This document shows positions 3,279 to 17,225 of a stretch of 64,000 bases of DNA, piece after piece. The translations under genes and the position numbers were made by a program. The stretch's first letter is position 1. Each line of letters begins with the position of its first letter. Under the pieces are notes generated by a model. It had not been told where the DNA came from and did not search any database. It saw only the letters and a list, made by a program, of their open reading frames with translations. Source of the stretch: Escherichia phage JS98; the sequence record NC_010105.1; one strand, 5' to 3'.

Positions 3279-3499
3279 GTATTGTTCTCACGAATTGTTT
3301 GTTCAGCATATTCTAGCATTTCTTCGGAAGAAGCAAACACGTCGTCAAGTTCCATGGCCCATGAAACACCTTCAGAATATTCAGAAGTGACATACATAGT
3401 TCCGGTATACCAAGAACCATCCACGTCCCATTCTACATTACCGAACCAGCCATCGCCAATATGAAAATCATGTTTATACATTTTCATCATTATAAGCAT
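3275..3499 (-). CDS. hypothetical protein (46.1 position)
   Basis: 74-aa ORF packed between 46 and 47. Confidence 0.45.
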   Translation of the reverse strand: MLIMMKMYKHDFHIGDGWFGNVEWDVDGSWYTGTMYVTSEYSEGVSWAMELDDVFASSEEMLEYAEQTIRENNT

Positions 3500-3737
3500 C
3501 CTTGATGCATGATTCAGCCATATGAATTAATGTTTCTGGAGTATCATCTACCATTACATTAAAGCTAAATTCTACAGCCCAATCGGTAGCAACATAAACT
3601 TTAATAAGCTCGCAGGTATCACGAGTGCTCACGGCTTCAAACCAGAACTTAATTGTACTAGGTTGGCCATCATCGTCAATAACTATACAGTCGTGTTCCA
3701 GTTCAAGTCCTGATTTTTTGAATTCATCTAAAGTCAT
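3474..3737 (-). CDS. hypothetical protein (46.2 position)
   Basis: 87-aa ORF packed between 46 and 47. Confidence 0.45.
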   Translation of the reverse strand: MTLDEFKKSGLELEHDCIVIDDDGQPSTIKFWFEAVSTRDTCELIKVYVATDWAVEFSFNVMVDDTPETLIHMAESCIKDAYNDENV

Positions 3738-4756
3738 CGTGTAACCTCATTATAAAGTTGTGCGGTCATAGTCTTAAGGGCTTTAACATCTTCTTCAGTG
3801 TGGCCATCAGGAAGGGCGTCGATATAATCATACATCATATCCAAGAGGGATTTAACTTCATCTTCCTCTTCAGAATCATCGATATCAACACTATTATCTA
3901 CCTTAGACACGATACGTAAAGAGTGAACAACCTTTTCAAGCTCTGATTCGAACTTAGTAAGGCCGTCATCGATTTTATCGACTATAACACGAACTGCGAT
4001 ATTTGTAAAATCTTTGTAATCGATAGTCGCATTAGGATAATGAATCTTACGATGCCAACAGGTTTCATTAATGATGAAATCCATTTTATGAGTTTCGGTA
4101 TCGAAAATCCAGAAACCACGAGGGTCGTTCTCATCACCTGCAGTCAGGGTCCATGGAGTACCAATGTACTTAACGTTTGCTGCATCAGAAATAGTGTGGA
4201 AGTGGCCTGACCAAACTTGCTTATACTTTTTAAGGAAATCAGGTTCTAAACCATGGGATTTCATTCCTTTATAGAAATAGAAACCATTTAATTCCCAATG
4301 ACCAACACAGAAATCTGCTGTAGTATTTTTGATATGGTCCATGATATCAGTCGTGTTTTCTTCACACATCCATGGAATCAAATCAATTTCGGTGCCATCA
4401 AAGTTAACCGTAGTAGGTTTTTCAATAACCTTGATATGGTCATATTTACCCAGAACTTCAGAAGCTGCGTTAGGAGTCAAGGTATTTTTGTAGTGCATAT
4501 CATGATTACCAACAATGGTATACATGGTAATGCCATTAGCTTTAAGCAAATCAGAGATTTCGCGAGCGAATTCCATACACTTATGGGTAATTGCTTTACG
4601 AACGTCAAAGATATCGCCGTATTGAATCCATACGGTAATACCATTTGCTTTAGAATAATCAATAGCGTCTTGGATACCTTGACGTTGGATATTTTGTACC
4701 CACACATCATCGGCCTTCACTCCAAGGTGCCAGTCACCTGTGTTTAATATTTTCAT
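3734..4756 (-). CDS. 47: recombination endonuclease subunit gp47 (Mre11/SbcD-like phosphoesterase)
   Basis: Start taken at MKILNTGDWHLG (ATG at 4754-4756), not the upstream in-frame Met of the ORF track; GDWH and GNHD phosphoesterase motifs; colinear with T4 gp47. Confidence 0.9.
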   Translation of the reverse strand: MKILNTGDWHLGVKADDVWVQNIQRQGIQDAIDYSKANGITVWIQYGDIFDVRKAITHKCMEFAREISDLLKANGITMYTIVGNHDMHYKNTLTPNAASEVLGKYDHIKVIEKPTTVNFDGTEIDLIPWMCEENTTDIMDHIKNTTADFCVGHWELNGFYFYKGMKSHGLEPDFLKKYKQVWSGHFHTISDAANVKYIGTPWTLTAGDENDPRGFWIFDTETHKMDFIINETCWHRKIHYPNATIDYKDFTNIAVRVIVDKIDDGLTKFESELEKVVHSLRIVSKVDNSVDIDDSEEEDEVKSLLDMMYDYIDALPDGHTEEDVKALKTMTAQLYNEVTR

Positions 4757-4960: not shown

Positions 4961-5124
4961 TTACCAATTAATACACCATACAGAGGTTCATGAGAAGACC
5001 TGAACTTGATAGGCTTATAGGTAATAGTACCTTCATTTTCCGCTTTAATACGAGCAGCTTCAAATTTAAGTATCATCTCATTTTTGTCAGATTTAATCTT
5101 ATCAAAATCCATCGAATTCGTCAT
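4951..5124 (-). CDS. hypothetical small protein (57 aa)
   Basis: MTNSMDFDKIKSDKNEMILKFEAARIKAENEGTITYKPIKFRSSHEPLYGVLIGKGA, GAGG RBS upstream; below ORF-track cutoff. Confidence 0.3.
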   Translation of the reverse strand: MTNSMDFDKIKSDKNEMILKFEAARIKAENEGTITYKPIKFRSSHEPLYGVLIGKGA

Positions 5125-5396
5125 TCATAAAACCTCTTAAACTTTTTCGTATTCGTCATTCATAGCTTAAAAATCCGGATGTTCGTCTTTCATTAGCCAC
5201 CTGTCCATGTTATCATCGTTGCCACCACTTCTTAAGTTGATGTGAATCCACCCAAACCTTGGCTACAGGCTCAATCCGAAAAATTTCATCGGAATACTGC
5301 CCAACCATTTTATATTCGGTTTCAGTCTGCTTAATACAAATATTACCGTATGAGCGAAGTCTGAAGGCGGCTCCAATAAGAAGCCGTTTAAAGGGT

Positions 5397-5708
5397 TTAT
5401 TTACTAGCGCCATTGATAATTTCCCAAATCTGTTTACGCGTAGTTTCCCACATAACTCTAACGATTTCGTCAGTAGTTGGTTGACGGTAAATACCACGTA
5501 ATTTAATTATAGCATATTTGTAAGCTTCGAAATTGTTTTCGAGAACAGCGCCCTGAGCATGTGTATTAAGACGCTTAATTTCACGGGCATTCTTTTTAAG
5601 AATTTTGGCAGCTTGAGAAGCGGCTTCTTTAGCATTATTCTCTTCTAAACGCTTCTGGGCTTCTTCAATTTGCTCTTCGGTCAATTGAGAAATGTCGGTG
5701 CTTTGCAT
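5397..5708 (-). CDS. hypothetical protein (103 aa)
   Basis: Coherent ORF with AAGGA RBS before ATG. Confidence 0.5.
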   Translation of the reverse strand: MQSTDISQLTEEQIEEAQKRLEENNAKEAASQAAKILKKNAREIKRLNTHAQGAVLENNFEAYKYAIIKLRGIYRQPTTDEIVRVMWETTRKQIWEIINGASK

Positions 5709-5709
5709 A

Positions 5710-5937
5710 TTAATCCTTGTAATTCAGTTTTATATAAAAATCTTCGTCGGTAACGTGATAGTTATAAGTTAATGTTCCTTTTTCAGCTTTAATTTCTACC
5801 GAATCAGGGTGTTTTGGGTCTATTACAATAGGAAGCTTGGCAATATCCTTAAGATACATTTTAAGAACATAAGGAATTGCCGAATACTCTCCATCTACTT
5901 CTTCTAAAAGGCCTACCAGGTTAATCTTGAGTTCCAT
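5710..5937 (-). CDS. hypothetical protein (about 75 aa)
   Basis: ORF immediately downstream of gene 55; start set at internal Met to avoid long overlap. Confidence 0.4.
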
Positions 5938-6478
5938 ATAAAAAATCCAGCTCACCAACTTTAGATTCAGCGCTCTTATCAGACCCTGGCGCTTTAACTA
6001 AAGAGGTTTCATACTGAGTCATTTTGTCGTAAATATCCTGGATAAAAGTTTCATCTGCGATACCTACCATGTCGTCGTCATTGGCGTCATAAACGTTATG
6101 GACGAAGTAGCTGTATTTCTTTGCCATTTCTTTACGTTCTTTCTTGATACGCTGAACAAAGGCATTAAAACAAGCCATAGTGATATATGCATGTGGGTTG
6201 TCGTATTTTGTTTCGTCGAAGTTATGAAGACCTTTAATAGAGGCTTCGATTCCATCAGCAATCATTTCTTGCTTCCAAGATTGGGTATATCCGGAGAAGT
6301 TGAACCGCTTAGAAAGGCCTTCAGCAATGAGCATAATAGCCAAGCCGATAACGTCGTTCTGACGAACTATTTTATTAGGGTCGGTATTTTCTCGGAGTTC
6401 CGTTTTCCACTGGGTAATGGCTTTCAGAAGCTCCTTATTATTTACATAGTTATTTTTAGTCAGTTTAATTTCGGTCAT
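5921..6478 (-). CDS. 55: late-transcription sigma factor gp55
   Basis: 185 aa; NYVNNKELL...WKTEL...[58 protein letters not shown] matches T4 gp55 nearly residue for residue. Confidence 0.92.
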
Positions 6479-6544
6479 TGTTACCTCAGATAACTCAAAT
6501 CATAGGTCTATTATATCATAGTATTTGGAGACCCGTTTAAAGCA

Positions 6545-6808
6545 TCAACGGAGTAAGCAATAAGCCTGAAATACTGTTTCAAGGATTTGTATGAACTCGG
6601 GATAAGAAATTGTATCAGTACATCCATGTTCGGACATATATCCGCAAAATTCTTTAAAAAGTTCCGGATAATCCCGATGGTTGTATTTGGAAATATGAGA
6701 CTTCCATACTAAAGAAGTCTCACCACAAACAAACTCAACATCCATACAGTTATCTATTAAGAAAAATCCGAGACCTTCATAAGCGAGGGTGGTGGATATG
6801 GGTTTCAT
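6545..6808 (-). CDS. hypothetical protein (87 aa, Cys-containing)
   Basis: Intact ORF in leftward array. Confidence 0.4.
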   Translation of the reverse strand: MKPISTTLAYEGLGFFLIDNCMDVEFVCGETSLVWKSHISKYNHRDYPELFKEFCGYMSEHGCTDTISYPEFIQILETVFQAYCLLR

Positions 6809-7071
6809 TGTAGGAATCGAGCTCCTTCTAATGCATCATCAAGATTATCAAACTCATCGACGTAATCAATACCGCCAACTTCATCTTTAGCGTATAGCCA
6901 GTACCGTTTAAATTCATATTCGATAATAAAGTGGTCACCTTCAATCTGGAGAGCCCCATCACCATTAAATTGGACTGCATAACCTGTAAAGCGGACATCA
7001 TTCAGGAGTTCTTCTTTCATAGCAATCATTTCCAAGTTTTTATCGTAATTAGAGAGTTTTATTTTAATCAT
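6805..7071 (-). CDS. hypothetical acidic protein (88 aa)
   Basis: Intact ORF, stop/start overlap with neighbours. Confidence 0.4.
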   Translation of the reverse strand: MIKIKLSNYDKNLEMIAMKEELLNDVRFTGYAVQFNGDGALQIEGDHFIIEYEFKRYWLYAKDEVGGIDYVDEFDNLDDALEGARFLQ

Positions 7072-7397
7072 TTCGCAGCCTTAACAATTTTCAGGTCAAC
7101 GAATTTTTTCTTACGCTGGTTCTTCATACGACGGATGGTTTTGTCTGTGATTTCACCTGGGTGCCAAGCTTTAGATTCAACACCGAAGGCAGCAACATCA
7201 AACTCATCAAGAATATATTGAACCAGGATTTCACGAATACCGTTCTTACCAATTTTTTGGTCTTTAGAGTGCATGATTGGTAACAGTTCAGCAACCCATT
7301 GGTCAAGAACCTGAGGAGTTACAAAGCCAGTTTTCATCAGTTCATTAACTTTATCGAAAGCGAAAGAGTTCAGTACGTTTTTAATAGCTTGTGACAT
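7068..7397 (-). CDS. hypothetical protein (109 aa), starts MSQAIKN
   Basis: ORF with GAGGAAATT RBS; 5' leader and first codons identical to those of the 14377-15222 gene. Confidence 0.5.
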   Translation of the reverse strand: MSQAIKNVLNSFAFDKVNELMKTGFVTPQVLDQWVAELLPIMHSKDQKIGKNGIREILVQYILDEFDVAAFGVESKAWHPGEITDKTIRRMKNQRKKKFVDLKIVKAAK

Positions 7398-8101: not shown

Positions 8102-8356
8102 TTACCTCAACAGTTTGTATCCAATAAGGTTTTTAATGTACTGGATGTCTTTGATATCCAAATCCAACTTAAGGTCTTTCAGACGGTCGGCCAGGGTCAA
8201 AAAGGTTACATGCTTCCAATTCTTCACTGGGCAGCAATAAGTCTTAGGACCATTTGCAATTTCAATATTCTTATCAGTGACGGTGAGAAAAATTAGGCGC
8301 TCATCATCCAGATTAAGGGTGACGACATTTTTCATTGAATGCAATTTCAGGCTCAT
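8102..8356 (-). CDS. hypothetical protein (84 aa)
   Basis: Intact ORF. Confidence 0.4.
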   Translation of the reverse strand: MSLKLHSMKNVVTLNLDDERLIFLTVTDKNIEIANGPKTYCCPVKNWKHVTFLTLADRLKDLKLDLDIKDIQYIKNLIGYKLLR

Positions 8357-8558
8357 AATTTAATTTCCTTAGCTATCGAACAAAACACACCGCGGTCACA
8401 AATCATTTTAATATTAAGGTCAATTATGGTATACCACACGTCCAGGCTAGATATTTCAGTTACTAGAACAGCTTTGCCGTTGATTGAATAATACTGGTTG
8501 ACTTTAATTTCTTTATCTTGGATAGTCATAATGTTCTCCTCATGTGTTGATAGGATAG

Positions 8559-8587
8559 ACTATAACACGTGAGGAGAGGAAGTAAAC
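8559..8587 (-). promoter_or_regulatory. early promoter (GTTTAC -35, 17-bp spacer, TATAGT -10)
   Basis: Minus-strand GTGTTTACTTCCTCTCCTCACGTGTTATAGTCTATCC, followed by GAGGAG RBS and a 53-aa ORF. Confidence 0.4.
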
Positions 8588-8588
8588 A

Positions 8589-8906
8589 CTAATCTTCAAT
8601 TAAATCTCGGTCATAGCCAAGTTCAATCAAAAGGGATTTGAAGGCAGGAATATTTTCTATTTTCTTATTATCAACAAAGATTACAGGATAGCGTATAGCT
8701 AAGCTCTTGAAGCCAGCACGTTTGGCCAATGATACTATAAGAGGCTTATCATATACTGCGCCTGACGGCGTCTGGTTAATTACAGGATAGAAAGTATATT
8801 GGATAGAAAGGGAATTTAGGAGCGATAGAACTGCAATGCACCCTGGACAGCGCATGACCGTCTCAGGGATACCGTAAATCTCAATTTTAGTTAACTTTTG
8901 GTCCAC
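8589..8906 (-). CDS. glutaredoxin/NrdH-like redoxin (CPGC active site)
   Basis: KIEIYG beta-strand then CPGC dithiol and C-terminal glutaredoxin-like region; start placed at GTG 8904-8906, 8 nt after an AAGGAG RBS (start uncertain). Confidence 0.5.
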   Translation of the reverse strand: MDQKLTKIEIYGIPETVMRCPGCIAVLSLLNSLSIQYTFYPVINQTPSGAVYDKPLIVSLAKRAGFKSLAIRYPVIFVDNKKIENIPAFKSLLIELGYDRDLIED

Positions 8907-9183
8907 AGGAAATAACTCCTTGGTAGTCCCAAGTTTTGATAACTTCGTCTTCATTAGTTCCATACGGGATGTAAATCTGGATAAGGAACCCAGTATCATC
9001 AAAAGAGAAGTAGACGGTAGGTTTAATACCGTGAATCTCTGAAAGAGCATAGATGTCCTTGAGGTCATCTTCCTTACCGATAAAGAATTCTGGGTTCAGG
9101 TCACAGTCATGGAAGTACCATTCTTGGCCAAACTTGTCCCAAGCCGCCCAATCAGTAGCTACATACTCTTCAAAACGTTTCAT
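8887..9183 (-). CDS. hypothetical protein (98 aa)
   Basis: Intact ORF; 20-nt overlap with glutaredoxin start. Confidence 0.4.
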   Translation of the reverse strand: MKRFEEYVATDWAAWDKFGQEWYFHDCDLNPEFFIGKEDDLKDIYALSEIHGIKPTVYFSFDDTGFLIQIYIPYGTNEDEVIKTWDYQGVISCGPKVN

Positions 9184-10010: not shown

Positions 10011-10196
10011 TTATTTTTCAAATGTGCTATAGAACGAACGGTGCAACCGTTTAAATTGACGAATCATCTTTTTGGTAGGACGAGTATACAATCCCACACA
10101 GGTGGCCATAAACTGGTCAGTAGGGCTTCCTTTGATAAGAAGTTTCCAGACCTTGTCACCGTTTAACTTTTCGGTATAGACTAATGCAGTTTTCAT
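10011..10196 (-). CDS. hypothetical protein (61 aa)
   Basis: Intact ORF. Confidence 0.35.
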   Translation of the reverse strand: MKTALVYTEKLNGDKVWKLLIKGSPTDQFMATCVGLYTRPTKKMIRQFKRLHRSFYSTFEK

Positions 10197-10495
10197 GCGA
10201 CCTCAAATTCATTATCATCGTTAGTCCAAAAACACCAGAATGAAGCTTTAGTATCTTCAAACATTTCTTTAGTGTATTCGTATACCTTACCATTGAATTC
10301 GATAGCAGTTACGCCAATGATTTCAGGATTGCCCCATGGAGAAATCTCCACCTTCAAGATTTTAACTTCAGCACCTTCACAGAGCTCGCCTGACTCAAAA
10401 CCGCGATTGCCGTTTAATTCAGGCCAGTCAACATAATGGTCGACATCTTCTTCAGTAATACGAACAGTTTTACCTTCAAATTCAAATAAATTCAT
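10193..10495 (-). CDS. hypothetical acidic protein (100 aa)
   Basis: Intact ORF. Confidence 0.4.
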   Translation of the reverse strand: MNLFEFEGKTVRITEEDVDHYVDWPELNGNRGFESGELCEGAEVKILKVEISPWGNPEIIGVTAIEFNGKVYEYTKEMFEDTKASFWCFWTNDDNEFEVA

Positions 10496-10708
10496 CAGAA
10501 GGCCTCATCAGAAAAGCGGAGTTGAGCTTCAAGCCAATGGATATAATCGGCTGCGGCTTTAATTAAATCAGACTCTAGGTCAGGTAAAGAACCCGAATCC
10601 GATAACTCGTAAAGCGAATGTTCAATCAGACGGCCTTTATGACGGCCAATTTCAATTTTGGTACTCATATCCAAACTCCATATCGATTAAATCATTGTTT
10701 GAAGGTTC

Positions 10709-10738
10709 ATTATACTCTATTTCGGAATCGTTGTAAAC
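10709..10738 (-). promoter_or_regulatory. early promoter (GTTTACA -35, 17-bp spacer, TATAAT -10)
   Basis: Minus-strand CGGTTTACAACGATTCCGAAATAGAGTATAATGAACC upstream of a 57-aa ORF (10497-10670). Confidence 0.5.
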
Positions 10739-10784
10739 CGGTTCCTCTGGCTCGGTAGTTTCCCACCGAGCGACATACCATGGC

Positions 10785-11093
10785 TTAATGGTCACGCCAC
10801 CAACTACTTACTTCAAAATCAGGCTCGCCGTCTTCCCAATACCAAGGGCCGATTGGATGCCAATCACCATGCTCATCTTCTTCAAATTCTTCGGATTCGA
10901 GCCCAACGTATTGCCATTGGACTTCATAAGCAATGTCACCGATTACAACGGTGTTCTCGCCATACGGATTAGCCACAACAAAGTCTATACCTTCTGCTTT
11001 AGCCAGCCAAACCATATATTCGTATAGTTTATATTCTAGGTCATCTTCGGTGCCATCACCTAGAAAAATGGTTTGTTCGTTTAATTCAATCAT
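10785..11093 (-). CDS. hypothetical acidic, Trp-rich protein (102 aa)
   Basis: Intact ORF. Confidence 0.4.
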   Translation of the reverse strand: MIELNEQTIFLGDGTEDDLEYKLYEYMVWLAKAEGIDFVVANPYGENTVVIGDIAYEVQWQYVGLESEEFEEDEHGDWHPIGPWYWEDGEPDFEVSSWWRDH

Positions 11094-11697: not shown

Positions 11698-11936
11698 TTA
11701 AATTCCTAATACTTGTTTGAATGCTTCAGAACGGTCAAGTTCTGTTCCATATTTTTCTAGGTGTTCGTATTTTAAATCATACACATCAGATAGTATATTA
11801 TTATACGAACGAGTTAAAGCAGATTTCAATACTGAATAACTGTCCGGGAATTTACCATGCTCTTTATAATAAGCCAGAGTAAGTTCGCGGACTGCCTTAT
11901 CGGCAGCCTCTACATATTCTTTACGCTTTGCCATTT
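11698..11936 (-). CDS. hypothetical protein (about 79 aa)
   Basis: ORF; start set at internal Met after upstream stop. Confidence 0.35.
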
Positions 11937-12142
11937 TCATCTCGCTCAAATCGGTGTTTACAATGACGGCATTTATACTGAAGCGGATTATGACGCCATT
12001 GAACCAACTGGACCTGTTCAGTTCCACATTCAGGACAGTTTGGAACATTCTTAGAAGCTTTTTCACGACGTTCGACAATTTTAATAACAGCATTCCAATC
12101 AGGAATAGTTTGGTCAATATCGTCAGCTAATTGGTATTTCAT
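11921..12142 (-). CDS. zinc-ribbon protein (73 aa)
   Basis: CPEC...CRHC four-Cys arrangement. Confidence 0.45.
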
Positions 12143-13146
12143 TTCAACAGCTCCAGGGCTTGTTCCAGTTTATCCAGACGATTGGTAGACTCTTCCCAAA
12201 GTTTCTTGGCAGCAGTATATTGTCCGGTCAGTTTTTTGTTAATAGCCAAGGCATCTTTATACGCTTTTTCTAAGGCAACGATTTCCGGTAACTTGGATTT
12301 AGTAATTGGTGTATGGGCCATGATAGGGCTGTTCAAGTCGTTAATCAAGTCTTCTAATGTAGCAGGCTCTTTATCAGTGTTCACAATTTCCTCACATTTT
12401 TCTTGGTAAATTTCAGCATCGGTTTTTGGAACAGGGCATTTGATTTCGCGAACTGTTACTAAAACTTCATATCCTTTCCAGCCTAAGTGGTGGTTGATTT
12501 CTTGAATCTCATATTTCTCTACTGTATCCATCAAAGCTAAAGCTTGTTCTACAATATTCAGGGTATTGTAGGAAATATCTTGGTATTTCGAAACTTCAAC
12601 TTCTTTAGGTTTCCAACTAGGCGACCAAATAATAGAAATAAGTACCTTCCCTTTATAGTTGTTTGTTTTAATCATGCCATCAGCCATAGGGTGGATAGTA
12701 CGACAATCACCCTTTACAAAGGTTTTGGTTGCTGCTTTTAGAATTAATGCGGAGTTAGCCTTAAATTCACCGGCCCAACGTAAAGGAAATAAGCCCTTAG
12801 GGTCGGTACCTTTCATTTTGATATAGCTTTTTAAAACATCACCAAACCATTGGTAGCTAACAACGTGGCTGGAACCTGGGTGTTTCTCTCTGCCAAACTC
12901 TGAAAGGATATCCTTATTAACCAGCCGCGAAAGCAGTCGAGAACCTTTAAATGTATCTATGATATCAGGGATAAACAAACGCCCTGCAATCTTTTCGATT
13001 TCATCTTTGAAACAACCGGATAAGGCTTTATCAATTTGGTCTACCCATTTATTGATATTGGAAACTATCACCTCATATGGGGTTAATGGAGGGGTATTGT
13101 CAGTGATATACTTAGTAAAGGCATTGATGTATTCAGTACGGGTCAT
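12139..13146 (-). CDS. hypothetical protein (335 aa) with C-terminal coiled coil
   Basis: Start at MTRTEYINAF (ATG 13144-13146) after GAGGAGAATATC RBS; no motif recognised. Confidence 0.5.
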   Translation of the reverse strand: MTRTEYINAFTKYITDNTPPLTPYEVIVSNINKWVDQIDKALSGCFKDEIEKIAGRLFIPDIIDTFKGSRLLSRLVNKDILSEFGREKHPGSSHVVSYQWFGDVLKSYIKMKGTDPKGLFPLRWAGEFKANSALILKAATKTFVKGDCRTIHPMADGMIKTNNYKGKVLISIIWSPSWKPKEVEVSKYQDISYNTLNIVEQALALMDTVEKYEIQEINHHLGWKGYEVLVTVREIKCPVPKTDAEIYQEKCEEIVNTDKEPATLEDLINDLNSPIMAHTPITKSKLPEIVALEKAYKDALAINKKLTGQYTAAKKLWEESTNRLDKLEQALELLK

Positions 13147-13174
13147 GATATTCTCCTCAGTAGTTGATAAAAGG

Positions 13175-13204
13175 ATTATACTCCATCCGTCCTTGGATGT
13201 AAAC
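13175..13204 (-). promoter_or_regulatory. early promoter (GTTTACA -35, 17-bp spacer, TATAAT -10)
   Basis: Minus-strand GTGTTTACATCCAAGGACGGATGGAGTATAATCC upstream of 12139-13146. Confidence 0.55.
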
Positions 13205-13205
13205 A

Positions 13206-14099
13206 CTATTTTAGAGCTAATAGTGCCGCGCTGAGCTTGTCACGCTGGTTTTCCATATTCTTGATGCGAATCAATACGTCTTGAATGCTCTTTTTCTCAT
13301 CTTCAATCTGACCATTTAAACGGTGGATTGATTCCTGAATGCTATCTGCATAATAGGTCTCAATAGGTTTCATCGTAGGGTTAGTAACAACCAAAGAATT
13401 ATCAGGTTTAATTTTCCAATGATATGGTTTGGAATTGAATGGACTAGGCACAGCAGTGGTTTTGAATTTATCATAGGCTGCATACTGGCCTACGCTGTCA
13501 CATGATACTGCAGAGATACGACGTTCCATTTGTGGGTCCTTTTGTTGGGATTGATAAGGGGCATAAGACAAAAGATATTCACGAGTTAGTTTAACATTAA
13601 AATACACTGCATCGGCTCGCCCAGAACAATCAGCGTATTCATCGGTTGTAACTTTATATGATTCTACGGCCTTAATACGAGTCATTGCTTCTCTGAATAA
13701 GGTTTCGAATGCTTCACGAAGGGCCTTATTACCTTTTGAGGTAGGACGGAAACGAACTTGAATACCGTCAGCCAGAATATTAATGACTAGGTTACGAGCC
13801 GTAAAATTAATACTTTTGATATTAACAGGAACCGTAGAAATACGCCCTGCAGTGGCCAAGAGGTCTTTGATATTAGCCCGCAATGTTGCACCAAACAGGT
13901 GGGCTGGGCAACGGCAATAATCGTTCAAAGAACCGATATAAGTTCCTTTACGGCCTACACCATAAGTATAATTACCATTACAAATATGACCAAAGTCAGC
14001 TAGCCGATCGATAGCGATACGACGAGTCGTGTCATGGTCGTATATAGAGTATTCTTTACGTGTTTTAATGTTCATATTAAAGTCCAAATAATTTTTCAT
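13206..14099 (-). CDS. hypothetical protein (297 aa) with C-terminal coiled coil
   Basis: Intact ORF; no motif recognised. Confidence 0.5.
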   Translation of the reverse strand: MKNYLDFNMNIKTRKEYSIYDHDTTRRIAIDRLADFGHICNGNYTYGVGRKGTYIGSLNDYCRCPAHLFGATLRANIKDLLATAGRISTVPVNIKSINFTARNLVINILADGIQVRFRPTSKGNKALREAFETLFREAMTRIKAVESYKVTTDEYADCSGRADAVYFNVKLTREYLLSYAPYQSQQKDPQMERRISAVSCDSVGQYAAYDKFKTTAVPSPFNSKPYHWKIKPDNSLVVTNPTMKPIETYYADSIQESIHRLNGQIEDEKKSIQDVLIRIKNMENQRDKLSAALLALK

Positions 14100-14292
14100 A
14101 GAATTTAGCGAAAGGCCATGCGATACACATTATAATGCCCACTATCCAAAACATAGGCCATACTAGTGTAATGAATACTGCATCATAGCTTGATTCAATT
14201 TCGATTGGATTCCAATCACCTGATTTATGAATGATAAAGGTCGTCATAAATCCTAGCACAAAGTAAAGGAGAATAAAACCTAAGATTTCCAT
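14077..14292 (-). CDS. small membrane protein (71 aa, two TM helices)
   Basis: Hydrophobic segments ILGFILLYFVLGFMTTFII and FITLVWPMFWIVGIIMCIAW. Confidence 0.4.
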   Translation of the reverse strand: MEILGFILLYFVLGFMTTFIIHKSGDWNPIEIESSYDAVFITLVWPMFWIVGIIMCIAWPFAKFYEKLFGL

Positions 14293-14376
14293 ATTAACCT
14301 ATAATGTTTGAGAAAATTAGCCACAGAACACCCGTGGCTACGATTACATATCCAAGAACGGCGAGCCATTCCATAA

Positions 14377-15222
14377 TTAATCCTTAAGAAGATTTAGGAT
14401 ATCGATATATTTCTGGCGTTCAGCCTTAGCTTTGGCATTTAGACCAGAGAGTCGGAAAATCTCATCATCTTGTTGTTGGATTGTAACATTCAAGCAAGTA
14501 AGCAAATTGCTAAAATACTCAATTTGGGCTTGATGTTTCTCATTGCTGCGCACTGGTGCAGGTTCCATTTTAGGAGCTTGTTCTGAATGCTCTTCAGCCA
14601 GGTCTTTAATTTTATAAAGTTTAATACGCTGACCTACTCCAGTTTCAGCATCACCAAAACTAAGAACACCGTGCTGTTCTAATTCAGACAGGGCCAAGCG
14701 CAGATGGAACTTCCAGTTGTCGTATTGACACCCACTGTAATGGGAAATAGTATACTCGTTTTCATTTCTTGGATGATTAACAATATTAAAGATAATCCAA
14801 TCACCTGAACCGTTAGTCTTAAAGGTCATTTGTTTATCTTGACCTTTTGCAAGGCGAGCACCAAGGGCCAGTAGACGACGTTGATTAGTATTAAGGTCTT
14901 TAACAACTTCATCAAATGTCATCGCCGGGATTAAACGACCATAAAGGTCGTAGCCTTTGTTATAATTTTTAAGAATAATTTTGGCATTAGCACGAGACAA
15001 CATACCTGTTTTACGAAGAGTTTTCATGACTCGGTCTTCTAAGGTAAACGAACCTTTAGTCTTGTCAAAGATTTTAATGAAGTCATCTTTAACAGTACAA
15101 ACATTGAACTTGTCCCACATCATATATAGGACCTTTTCAACTACTTCTTTAGAACTAGGAATACGACCAAATTTAACAACTTTTTTAACTTCAGAACGAA
15201 TTTGATTAATTGCTTGTGACAT
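14377..15222 (-). CDS. hypothetical protein (281 aa), starts MSQAINQ, C-terminal coiled coil
   Basis: Intact ORF with GAGGAAATT RBS; 5' end identical to that of 7068-7397. Confidence 0.5.
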   Translation of the reverse strand: MSQAINQIRSEVKKVVKFGRIPSSKEVVEKVLYMMWDKFNVCTVKDDFIKIFDKTKGSFTLEDRVMKTLRKTGMLSRANAKIILKNYNKGYDLYGRLIPAMTFDEVVKDLNTNQRRLLALGARLAKGQDKQMTFKTNGSGDWIIFNIVNHPRNENEYTISHYSGCQYDNWKFHLRLALSELEQHGVLSFGDAETGVGQRIKLYKIKDLAEEHSEQAPKMEPAPVRSNEKHQAQIEYFSNLLTCLNVTIQQQDDEIFRLSGLNAKAKAERQKYIDILNLLKD

Positions 15223-15259
15223 AATAATTTCCTCAGTAAGTAATTAAGAACCTAGAACC

Positions 15260-15288
15260 ATTATACCATCCTTGGTATAAAGCGTTTA
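15260..15288 (-). promoter_or_regulatory. candidate extended -10 promoter (TGGTATAAT) inside palindrome TTATACCA-TCCT-TGGTATAA; weak -35
   Basis: Minus-strand CCAAGGATGGTATAATGG upstream of 14377-15222. Confidence 0.3.
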
Positions 15289-15810
15289 TGCGAGAACCGT
15301 CTTTAAACGCTCTTCAAATTTCTGAAGCAGAGCTTGGCGTTCAGCTCGTTGTGATTTGTACTGCTCGATACGACCTGAAGTGAGGGCGTACTGTTCGTTT
15401 ACTGATTCCCGCATGAATTCAGGAATCTCTTTACAAGCTTTGATTTCGTCAAACTTATCAATAACCGCTTGTTGTTCAGCAATCAAGTTATCAAAATAAG
15501 CGATATCTGATTTAATGTTTGCCAGGTCAGATTCAGTAGGCATTAAACGTTTATTACGCTCAGCTTGATAAGCTTGGTTGGTTTCACGACTCCAGTGAAG
15601 AGTACGTTTTTTGTTAGTGTTTTTATAGAGCTCTACAATACCAACTGAATCGATGATAACAATCCAGTTCCAACGGCTTTTGTAAATCTCTCCTCCAGAT
15701 ATGGTAATCTCATTACCACAAGCAACGTCGTTAAAGAACTTGCTTTGTTTTTCAGATTTGAAATTACCATTGTTAAAATTAATCAGTGAAAAAATATCTT
15801 TAGCGTTCAT
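15286..15810 (-). CDS. hypothetical protein (174 aa) with C-terminal coiled coil
   Basis: Intact ORF. Confidence 0.45.
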   Translation of the reverse strand: MNAKDIFSLINFNNGNFKSEKQSKFFNDVACGNEITISGGEIYKSRWNWIVIIDSVGIVELYKNTNKKRTLHWSRETNQAYQAERNKRLMPTESDLANIKSDIAYFDNLIAEQQAVIDKFDEIKACKEIPEFMRESVNEQYALTSGRIEQYKSQRAERQALLQKFEERLKTVLA

Positions 15811-15824
15811 GATAACCTCCAGTA

Positions 15825-15866
15825 GTTGATAGGTCTATAGTATCATGTCTAATGGAGATGTAAACA
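15825..15866 (-). promoter_or_regulatory. conserved early-promoter cassette (PeSL-like): GTTTACA -35, extended -10 TGaTACTAT, conserved AGACCTATCAA downstream
   Basis: Minus-strand GTTTACATCTCCATTAGACATGATACTATAGACCTATCAACTACTGG; one of at least 11 near-identical copies. Confidence 0.55.
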
Positions 15867-16219: not shown

Positions 16220-17200
16220 TTATTTCAGAAGGGTAACTTCAGCGATTTCGCTCCAGTCATTTTTATCGGTGGCAATGAAGTCCGCCAGATAAAGAGCTGT
16301 ACGTAATGATACGTTACGAAGACGAGATACATTGGCCTTCATCCATGCTAGAGCTTGATAAGTCTCAGCATCAGTCAGACCTCGGTTTTGCATCATATCG
16401 GTGGACAGGATAACGTCTTCAACACGAACCATAATCTCTTCATTCGAGTGAACTCCGAGGTCTAAGTAAACTGAACGAGATACTAAAGCTTGGAGGTGTG
16501 GAGCAAGTTTAGTTCCACGCTCTAATTCACGGTCAATATCAACGTTGGTGATGAACACGATGGTGCCTTCGTATTCGAATTCTTTATCGATATTTTTATC
16601 ATCGAGATAAGAACTTGAAGTGCTCCAGCATACCTTACGTTTCTCACCGGTATCCAATGCCGCTTTCAGAAGGTTCAGGATATCCATGTCAGAGAATACA
16701 TCAACATCATCAATAAGAAGAACACTATTAGGGCCGCGGTTATTCCAAAGTTGCTCGTAAAGACCGATTCCACTAATCTTTCCGTTGATTGATTTATATT
16801 CGATAGTTTCATTTTCGTGGGCATTTTGTAATGCTTTATCCAAAGAGTATGTTTTACCAATACCTGCGGCACCAGAGATGATAAGGGAACGAATTTTACC
16901 ATCGATGATTCCGTTAGTCATCATGTTCATTACTTTAAAACGTTTGTTGATGCGATGTTTCATTTCTTCAGCGGATTCAGTAACCGTTGCAGGTGCTTCA
17001 GCGCCTTCCATTTCAACGTCACATTTGAACACCCATACACCACGTTCAACACCATCAATCTGCACGAATACCTTGCCGTCACCGAGGTGAGCTTCAGATT
17101 CATGAATTTTATTAGGGAACCAGGTTTTACCTGAACTCATGAACGTACCAGAGATTTCATTACCGCGATAGATACCTTTGTTGATTTTGATAGTTAACAT
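16220..17200 (-). CDS. AAA+ family ATPase
   Basis: Walker A GAAGIGKT, Walker B LLIDDVD, sensor-1-like TIVFITN; start at MLTIKINKG (ATG 17198-17200) after GAAGGAG RBS. Confidence 0.6.
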   Translation of the reverse strand: MLTIKINKGIYRGNEISGTFMSSGKTWFPNKIHESEAHLGDGKVFVQIDGVERGVWVFKCDVEMEGAEAPATVTESAEEMKHRINKRFKVMNMMTNGIIDGKIRSLIISGAAGIGKTYSLDKALQNAHENETIEYKSINGKISGIGLYEQLWNNRGPNSVLLIDDVDVFSDMDILNLLKAALDTGEKRKVCWSTSSSYLDDKNIDKEFEYEGTIVFITNVDIDRELERGTKLAPHLQALVSRSVYLDLGVHSNEEIMVRVEDVILSTDMMQNRGLTDAETYQALAWMKANVSRLRNVSLRTALYLADFIATDKNDWSEIAEVTLLK

Positions 17201-17225
17201 TTTATTCTCCTTCACTCAGTAGATT

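Follow-up and report, generated by a model that had tools for sequence, protein, structure and literature searches.

Remote homology and a conserved predicted coiled-coil tail among nrdC.4-nrdC.8 block proteins of Escherichia phage JS98

Background

A 64,000-nucleotide stretch of the Escherichia phage JS98 genome (NC_010105.1), referred to here as the window and the source of the JS98 positions below, contains between 12139 and 15810 four genes coding proteins of 335, 297, 281 and 174 residues. A preliminary description made from the sequence alone presented these as consecutive, unrecognised proteins with similar C-terminal coiled-coil tails, three of them with their own promoter, and suggested either a common interaction partner or a paralogous effector family with variable N-terminal domains. 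The question raised by the locus is therefore whether the likeness of the tails reflects common ancestry, a common partner or the generic composition of coiled coils. Judging from the comparisons below, two and perhaps three of the four genes derive from a single gene by divergence and have kept a conserved coiled-coil tail. The genes are in themselves ordinary accessory genes of T-even phages, and what is new is modest and lies at the family level, where NrdC.5, a protein that counteracts the Dsr1 defence, is tied to NrdC.3 and NrdC.4, and perhaps to NrdC.6, through that tail. A search for papers describing a link of NrdC.5 to NrdC.3 or NrdC.4 via a conserved coiled-coil tail found none.

Identity of the four genes

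The window represents a JS10-like Dhakavirus, a T4-type phage, and by megablast the 5.9-kb stretch around the four genes shared 95.6% identity with Escherichia phage JS10 and 96.6% with an unannotated relative. The genes, named here by the length of their products, are:

12139..13146, minus strand, p335, NrdC.4 ortholog of 335 residues (phrog_1435; precomputed Pfam assignment PF26897)
13206..14099, minus strand, p297, NrdC.5-family protein of 297 residues (Pfam DUF7235, PF23882; phrog_2351)
14377..15222, minus strand, p281, NrdC.6 ortholog of 281 residues (phrog_2257; precomputed Pfam assignment PF26899)
15286..15810, minus strand, p174, NrdC.8 ortholog of 174 residues (phrog_2274; precomputed Pfam assignment PF26901 Phage_T4_Y05D)

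p335 was aligned to T4 NrdC.4 over its full length (41% identity over 346 columns, BLASTP E 2e-75) and to phrog_1435 over positions 1-334 of 334 (E 8e-139). BLASTP matched p281 to T4 NrdC.6 (45% identity, E 2e-48) and p174 to T4 NrdC.8 (69% identity, E 2e-91), with corresponding matches to phrog_2257 (E 9e-126) and phrog_2274 (E 4e-102). PF26899 was present on all 104 of the 104 NrdC.6 homologs and p174 carries the N-domain motif NNGxFKSEKQ of the NrdC.8 family. p297 was 24% identical to T4 NrdC.5 (BLASTP E 1e-15) and matched DUF7235 across model positions 1-307 of 307 (E 6e-126; 420.5 bits, gathering cut-off 30), as did T4 NrdC.5 itself (E 5e-126, 420.6 bits). The JS10 annotation names three of the four counterparts (nrdC.4, nrdC.6 and nrdC.8), and the position of the NrdC.4 gene after nrdC.2, the start of which its stop codon overlaps, agrees with that annotation. 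A copy of nrdC.3 is absent from JS98, as it is from JS10 and phage RZ.

As judged from these matches, the run corresponds in Dhakavirus to the nrdC.4-nrdC.8 block of T4 and consists of known T-even open reading frame (ORF) families. The lengths and C-termini given in the preliminary description were correct and all four ORFs are on the minus strand. They are not strictly consecutive, as ORFs of 71 and 26 residues intervene between the genes for p281 and p297, and they are not unrecognised, because BLASTP, PHROG and Pfam identify all four as orthologs or family members of T4 NrdC.4, NrdC.5, NrdC.6 and NrdC.8. In PHROGs the four fall into separate families, all of unknown function, and Pfam also separates them. 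An NCBIfam search gave no matches and a literature search on the Pfam accessions returned nothing.

Relationship of NrdC.4 and NrdC.5

Full-length profile comparison by hhalign related NrdC.3 to NrdC.4 with a probability of 97.7% (E 2e-12). A merged NrdC.3 and NrdC.4 profile was aligned to NrdC.5 with a probability of 83.8% (E 8e-6), collinearly over 250 columns and up to the last residue, so that the NrdC.5 tail end dKLxaAixaLK falls column for column on the NrdC.4 tail. Structure comparison pointed the same way, as Foldseek searches of BFVD matched the p335 and p297 models to the same uncharacterised Straboviridae proteins of 300-375 residues, namely those of Enterobacter phage IME523, Erwinia phage Cronus, Serratia phage PS2 and Yersinia phage fHe-Yen9-01.

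Sequences bridging the families were also found. Klebsiella, Serratia, Acinetobacter and Enterobacter phages carry a single gene for a protein of 324-355 residues, located 1-7 genes upstream of nrdC, with a long helix at its end. Among these, Klebsiella KR8_324 matched the NrdC.3/NrdC.4 profile at 93% and Serratia CHI14_346 matched NrdC.5 at 94.6%, while the two proteins matched each other directly by BLASTP (3e-8). Matches to the family phrog_26858 came from the NrdC.4 body as well as from the NrdC.5 tail. On this profile and model evidence NrdC.4 and NrdC.5 are remote full-length homologs and form one superfamily with NrdC.3. The tail is kept in the single-copy lineages and is therefore independent of a paralog partner, which argues against a need for pairing between paralogs.

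The suggestion of a paralogous effector family is thus borne out for p335 and p297, which belong to one family with NrdC.3 by profiles, bridging sequences and structures; p174 lies outside it and p281 is a candidate only. The variable N-terminal domains are not unrelated modules, as those of p335 and p297 are diverged homologs, and the fast divergence itself was seen.

Architecture and conservation of the tails

The AF2 model of p335 (mean pLDDT 81.7) consisted of an alpha/beta N-domain at residues 3-271, a linker at 273-284 and a helix at 287-334, and that of p297 (mean pLDDT 67.8) of a domain at residues 21-178, a disordered linker at 181-244 and a helix at 246-296. In both models the globular alpha/beta part was built on a core of two strands, a helix and two further strands, and was followed by a low-confidence linker and the long terminal helix of 48-51 residues. 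In p281 a proline-rich linker precedes a helical tail of about 50 residues ending ...ERQKYIDILNLLKD and coded by about 14380-14535. The tail-helix regions defined by the AF2 models and heptads are:

12142..12288, minus strand, NrdC.4 tail-helix region, residues 287-335
13209..13364, minus strand, NrdC.5-family tail-helix region, residues 246-297, ending ...NQRDKLSAALLALK

Hydrophobic occupancy of the heptad a and d positions was 0.86 for p335 and 0.80 for p297 (p=0.0015 for each relative to shuffles) and 0.73 for p281 (p=0.03). These three tails place a terminal L-K in the same d-e register, with p281 adding one residue after it. No continuous heptad was detected in p174 (0.61, p=0.19), which has a proline within its C-terminal region.

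Families were aligned using database homologs and the loci of T4, T6, RB68, DalCa, Pu-Krd-SF2, RZ, RB69 and Manna; word-indexed homolog searches reached approximately 50% identity for NrdC.5 and missed T4 NrdC.5, a gap that was filled from annotated phage loci. Identity in the tail relative to the body was 69% versus 42% for NrdC.4, 46% versus 28% for NrdC.5, 63% versus 34% for NrdC.6, 83% versus 62% for NrdC.3 and 75% versus 71% for NrdC.8. Between clades, 8-13 of the last 30 tail codons differed synonymously (8-11 for NrdC.4), and the constraint is therefore on the protein rather than on overlapping DNA signals. A nucleotide-level constraint arising from overlap of a tail with the next promoter was ruled out, as synonymous sites vary freely and one tail only abuts a promoter.

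Raw pairwise alignment of the C-termini, a check proposed in the preliminary description, was carried out by Smith-Waterman on the last 40-80 residues and separated p335-p297 (z 3-4) from the other five of the six pairs, which were at chance level. Family profiles were therefore used, designated C3, C4, C5, C6 and C8 for NrdC.3, NrdC.4, NrdC.5, NrdC.6 and NrdC.8. In tail-only hhalign, C3-C5 aligned in register with E 4e-5, compared to 0.07 for the reversed control, and the values were 0.013 for C3-C4 and 0.009 for C4-C5. An end-anchored profile score was compared to a heptad-preserving null in 15 tests, with the two NrdC.5 subtypes as a positive control (z 4.2), and gave z 3.0 for C3-C4 and about 2.1-2.2 for C3-C5; the positive control and C3-C4 alone survived correction for the 15 tests.

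The similarity of the tails was therefore upheld for p335 and p297 by helices, heptads and pairwise score, with NrdC.3, NrdC.4 and NrdC.5 profiles alike beyond heptad periodicity, while it did not extend to p174 and was suggestive for p281. Tails alike in generic composition only and orthology to T4 nrdC.x proteins of known function had been named beforehand as findings that would count against the suggestion. The orthology was established, including two families with published anti-defence phenotypes, but the tails are not all merely generic.

NrdC.6 and rearrangements of the tail

Homology of NrdC.6 to NrdC.3, NrdC.4 and NrdC.5, with shared architecture and heptad register, is only suggestive. 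The NrdC.6 tail ...KAKxERxKhhxhhxLLKx is kept from RB69 to T6. In the T4 reference (NC_000866) the nrdC.6 gene (fetched locus 10067-10894) has a 1-nucleotide deletion after ...QIEEL compared to T6 (3428-4315), and as a result of this frameshift the T4 reference protein is without the conserved tail. The T4 annotation used for HIDEN-SEQ lists a full 891-nucleotide nrdC.6, and the frameshift in the reference is thus a strain difference or a sequencing error. The DUF7235 match of RB69 nrdC.5 (fetched locus 8142-9044) stops at model position 232 of 307 and the protein has a non-helical end; this copy probably lost its tail by frameshift.

The gene Manna_094 of Salmonella phage Manna (fetched locus 6113-7150) codes a natural in-frame fusion in which residues 1 to approximately 269 of NrdC.6 are followed by the final 83 residues of NrdC.4; nrdC.5 is deleted and the junction is the 10-nucleotide microhomology TGATGAAATT. 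This chimera was dropped as evidence for tail homology, as the microhomology junction is at non-homologous positions. The NrdC.6 protein of Shigella phage Sf25 (378 residues) has an internal tandem duplication of 83 residues, with residues 176-258 repeated, which begins at ...KQIEEL, the point of the T4 frameshift and about 10 codons upstream of the Manna junction.

NrdC.8 as a separate family

p174 consists of a conserved N-domain of about 90 residues (NNGxFKSEKQ...) followed by helical segments broken by proline. Comparison of NrdC.8 to the other three families gave hhalign probabilities of at most 1.7% and no significant profile link, and end-anchored tail scores had z of at most 0.9 for four of five pairs, the fifth being C4-C8 (z 2.0, p 0.025 uncorrected). 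From these comparisons NrdC.8 is unrelated to the other three and has a similar general build, with a small N-domain and then helices.

The NrdC.8 N-domain recurs in 45 remote representative clusters, where the match covers the N-domain only and the helical region behind it is not conserved. These clusters (precomputed label PF26901 Phage_T4_Y05D) come from unrelated metagenomic phage contigs in which the gene is located beside gp32 and a UvsX-like RecA or beside primase and DnaB, with three such contig loci at 6001-6657, 4995-6596 and 555-2156. One of the remote proteins is a 533-residue fusion with a 340-residue N-terminal part of no assigned family.

Anti-defence context

Supplied on a plasmid, T4 nrdC.5 alone allows a deletion phage to plate again on cells with the SIR2 protein Dsr1 from E. 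coli ECOR17 (Srikant, Guegler and Laub, eLife 2022, PMC9391042), and NrdC.5 is the one protein of the NrdC.3/NrdC.4/NrdC.5 group, with or without NrdC.6, that has a known phenotype. The gene bas37_0203 of phage Bas37 has been reported to inhibit Druantia type III and was termed a bona fide inhibitor by the authors, with activity seen against one Druantia III allele (HIDEN-SEQ preprint, bioRxiv 10.1101/2025.11.20.689424). In the table of that preprint bas37_0203 is 528 nucleotides long and located between genes of 390 and 315 nucleotides, downstream of nrdC, nrdC.1, nrdC.2, nrdC.3, nrdC.4, nrdC.5 and nrdC.6. The primers used for its deletion map in and immediately around nrdC.8 of T4 and T6, and one of them encodes RKFEERLK of the NrdC.8 tail. 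From gene order, size and deletion primers we infer that bas37_0203 is the NrdC.8 ortholog, an identity not stated in the preprint, and this ties an unnamed Druantia III inhibitor to a long-known T4 ORF. The same preprint gives nrdC.3 through nrdC.9 as non-essential in both T4 and Bas37. The published phenotypes would carry over to JS98, with greater probability for NrdC.8, at 69% identity, than for the NrdC.5 homolog, at 24%. A paper on the anti-Druantia gene DruSM1 was set aside as it concerns an unrelated phage and gene.

Other genes of interest near nrdC included NrdC.1, which in T4 was recently reported to inhibit Septu and has an ortholog in the window (11698-11910, minus strand, phrog_2052), and gp49.2, which inhibits OLD. 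In T4 the gp49.2 gene is a few genes from the block, upstream of nrdC, and JS10 annotates 49.1 and 49.3 only. NrdC.10, located at 16220-17215 on the minus strand, is an ATPase of AAA/STAND-like type, the C-terminus of which gave a weak helix-turn-helix match. Phage records with a homolog numbered 1310, among them Vibrio, Xanthomonas and jumbo phages, and NrdC.10 is thus far more conserved than its neighbours.

Proposed function and alternative explanations

We consider it probable that these are tandemly expanded anti-defence proteins, in which fast-evolving target-binding domains are carried on a conserved oligomerising tail, coded by dispensable early or middle genes within an anti-defence island. 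Tandem duplication of an ancestral gene that is located near nrdC in many Straboviridae would have given rise to NrdC.4 and the NrdC.5-family protein, and possibly to NrdC.6, and each copy would have a globular alpha/beta N-domain, a flexible linker and a heptad helix of about 50 residues at its end. The fast-diverging N-domain may directly bind a specific host immune protein, T4 NrdC.5 being known to counteract Dsr1, while the conserved heptad tail would drive self-association as a coiled coil, with a gain in avidity where the target is oligomeric. The range of targets would have been widened as the gene was duplicated in tandem. NrdC.8 would be a separate protein in the same island, with a Bas37 ortholog that inhibits Druantia type III. 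The design suggested is that of a variable binding domain joined to a constant oligomerising helix, and with NrdC.5 as a diverged duplicate of NrdC.3/NrdC.4, perhaps also of NrdC.6, the proteins NrdC.3, NrdC.4 and NrdC.6 become candidate anti-defence factors.

Several observations weigh against this explanation. The identity of p297 to T4 NrdC.5 is only 24%, and anti-Dsr1 activity may therefore not transfer to p297 or its target specificity may differ. A different Druantia III allele still restricts Bas37, and inhibition is thus allele-specific. The main text and legends of the HIDEN-SEQ study do not highlight NrdC.4 or NrdC.6 as conditionally essential, and in one of its comparison tables neither showed more than a small, non-significant log2 fold change. 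The inclusion of NrdC.6 is affected by hhalign values against NrdC.3, NrdC.4 and NrdC.5 that were collinear though not significant (E 0.05-0.09), by end-anchored tail scores of z 1.4-2.2 uncorrected for the 15 tests, and by its sole structural link being a Foldseek match of the p335 model to the internally duplicated Sf25 NrdC.6 (E 2.5e-3). Lineages with tail-less copies, namely RB69 NrdC.5 and the T4 reference NrdC.6, are also viable.

The tails could instead, as the preliminary description suggested, be docking modules for one common partner, either a host hub or a phage protein such as NrdC.10, with the paralogs acting as alternative adaptors. The tail being the most conserved segment in four families would fit such a role, as would the shared d-e register of the terminal L-K in p335, p297 and p281, the wide co-occurrence of NrdC.10 and a loose C-terminal motif, defined post hoc, that occurs in 4 of the 282 ORFs of the window, three of them the genes discussed here. 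We regard this as unlikely, given that a shared partner would be expected to preserve a common surface and the paralog tails differ at most surface positions (b, c and f); the tail-only profile signal is weak and NrdC.10 is tied to the run by proximity alone. A more elaborate form, in which the terminal helices are a docking code that lets NrdC.3, NrdC.4, NrdC.5 and NrdC.6 assemble into mixed coiled-coil bundles or on a shared hub (NrdC.10 or a host factor), giving one multi-specific anti-defence particle tuned by N-domain swaps, is more speculative still; were it true, natural NrdC.6::NrdC.4 tail fusions would be functional.

It is similarly improbable that the resemblance is generic throughout, that is, that four unrelated small-domain proteins each acquired a C-terminal coiled coil with no ancestry or function in common. 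Chance-level raw alignments in five of the six pairs, a single NrdC.8 tail pair of five above chance, the non-significant NrdC.6 hhalign result and the four separate PHROGs and Pfam families are what such a reading predicts. It holds for NrdC.8 and is refuted for p335-p297 by the full-length collinear homology of NrdC.3, NrdC.4 and NrdC.5, the bridging sequences and the shared structural neighbours. Even less probable is that the genes, named for their position near nrdC, code host-takeover or DNA-metabolism accessory factors with published phenotypes that are indirect. Their early or middle expression class, nearby nucleotide-metabolism genes and the replication and recombination neighbours of NrdC.8-like genes in metagenomic contigs are consistent with such roles. 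On laboratory hosts, however, T4 and Bas37 can do without every gene of the run, plasmid nrdC.5 alone is sufficient to restore plating on Dsr1 cells and the authors who described bas37_0203 considered it a bona fide inhibitor. Arms-race genes, more than core metabolism, would also be expected to show the patchy distribution, tandem expansion, frameshifts, fusions and duplications seen here.

Comparison with T4 genes and anti-defence islands

T4 NrdC.5 resembles p297 in its slot after nrdC.4, in the order of domain, linker and helix and in the end motif ...QRxKLxxAhxxLK/N (h, hydrophobic), while p297 differs in belonging to a Dhakavirus/Gaprivervirus subtype, with 24% identity to the T4 protein and a body that is about 28% identical across clades. 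p335 is the ortholog of T4 NrdC.4, of which NrdC.3 is a paralog. p281 is an ortholog of T-even NrdC.6 and shares its tail, which the T4 reference sequence lacks. p174 matches NrdC.8 of T4 and T6 over the full length (69% identity), in the same position and with the same tail ...KFEERLKTVLA.

T4 anti-defence islands such as dmd-tifA-adfA and the pin, gp49.2 and nrdC.1 segment are similar in that they consist of small dispensable genes with early promoters, each acting against a different defence, and evolve through deletion, amplification and recombination as the run does here. The dmd-tifA-adfA island acts against toxin-antitoxin systems. Unlike these islands, the JS98 run contains neighbours that are diverged duplicates with a shared coiled-coil tail, a feature not described there.

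Promoters, start sites and intervening ORFs

Consensus matches to phage promoters were located ahead of three of the four genes:

13175..13204, minus strand, T4 early-type promoter GTTTACA-17-TATAAT of the NrdC.4 gene, an 11/12 match to the sigma-70 consensus
15260..15283, minus strand, MotA-box-type middle promoter GCTTTA-12-TATAAT upstream of the NrdC.6 gene
15837..15865, minus strand, T4 early-type promoter GTTTACA..TACTAT upstream of the NrdC.8 gene

At the level of such matches the earlier observation that three genes have their own promoter holds for p335, p281 and p174. The GTTTAC..TAnnAT motif occurred 16 times in the window versus 1.8 expected, with 15 of the 16 on the minus strand, and the MotA-type motif GCTTTA-12-TATAAT 17 times versus 3.3 expected. 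Both motif types were almost all on the minus strand up to approximately 43 kb, matching the strand switch in GC skew.

Between the genes for the NrdC.6 and NrdC.5 homologs are two small ORFs:

14077..14292, minus strand, predicted membrane protein of 71 residues (phrog_7899; annotated in phage RZ)
14294..14374, minus strand, hydrophobic mini-ORF of 26 residues, MEWLAVLGYVIVATGVLWLIFSNIIG (near-identical ORF annotated in phage RZ)

A terminator-like hairpin (14318-14340) is located inside the mini-ORF. T4 differs in having the membrane protein NrdC.7 between nrdC.6 and nrdC.8.

The start of the NrdC.4 gene is the ATG at 13146, preceded by GAGGAG; a longer GTG form of 355 residues (extension 13147-13206) was rejected as an artefact that overruns the early promoter. 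Two starts are possible for the NrdC.5 homolog, the ATG at 14099, which gives 297 residues and a 23-nucleotide overlap with the 71-residue ORF, and the ATG at 14075, which gives 289 residues, as in most database homologs. In the AF2 model of the longer form, residues 1-20 were disordered.

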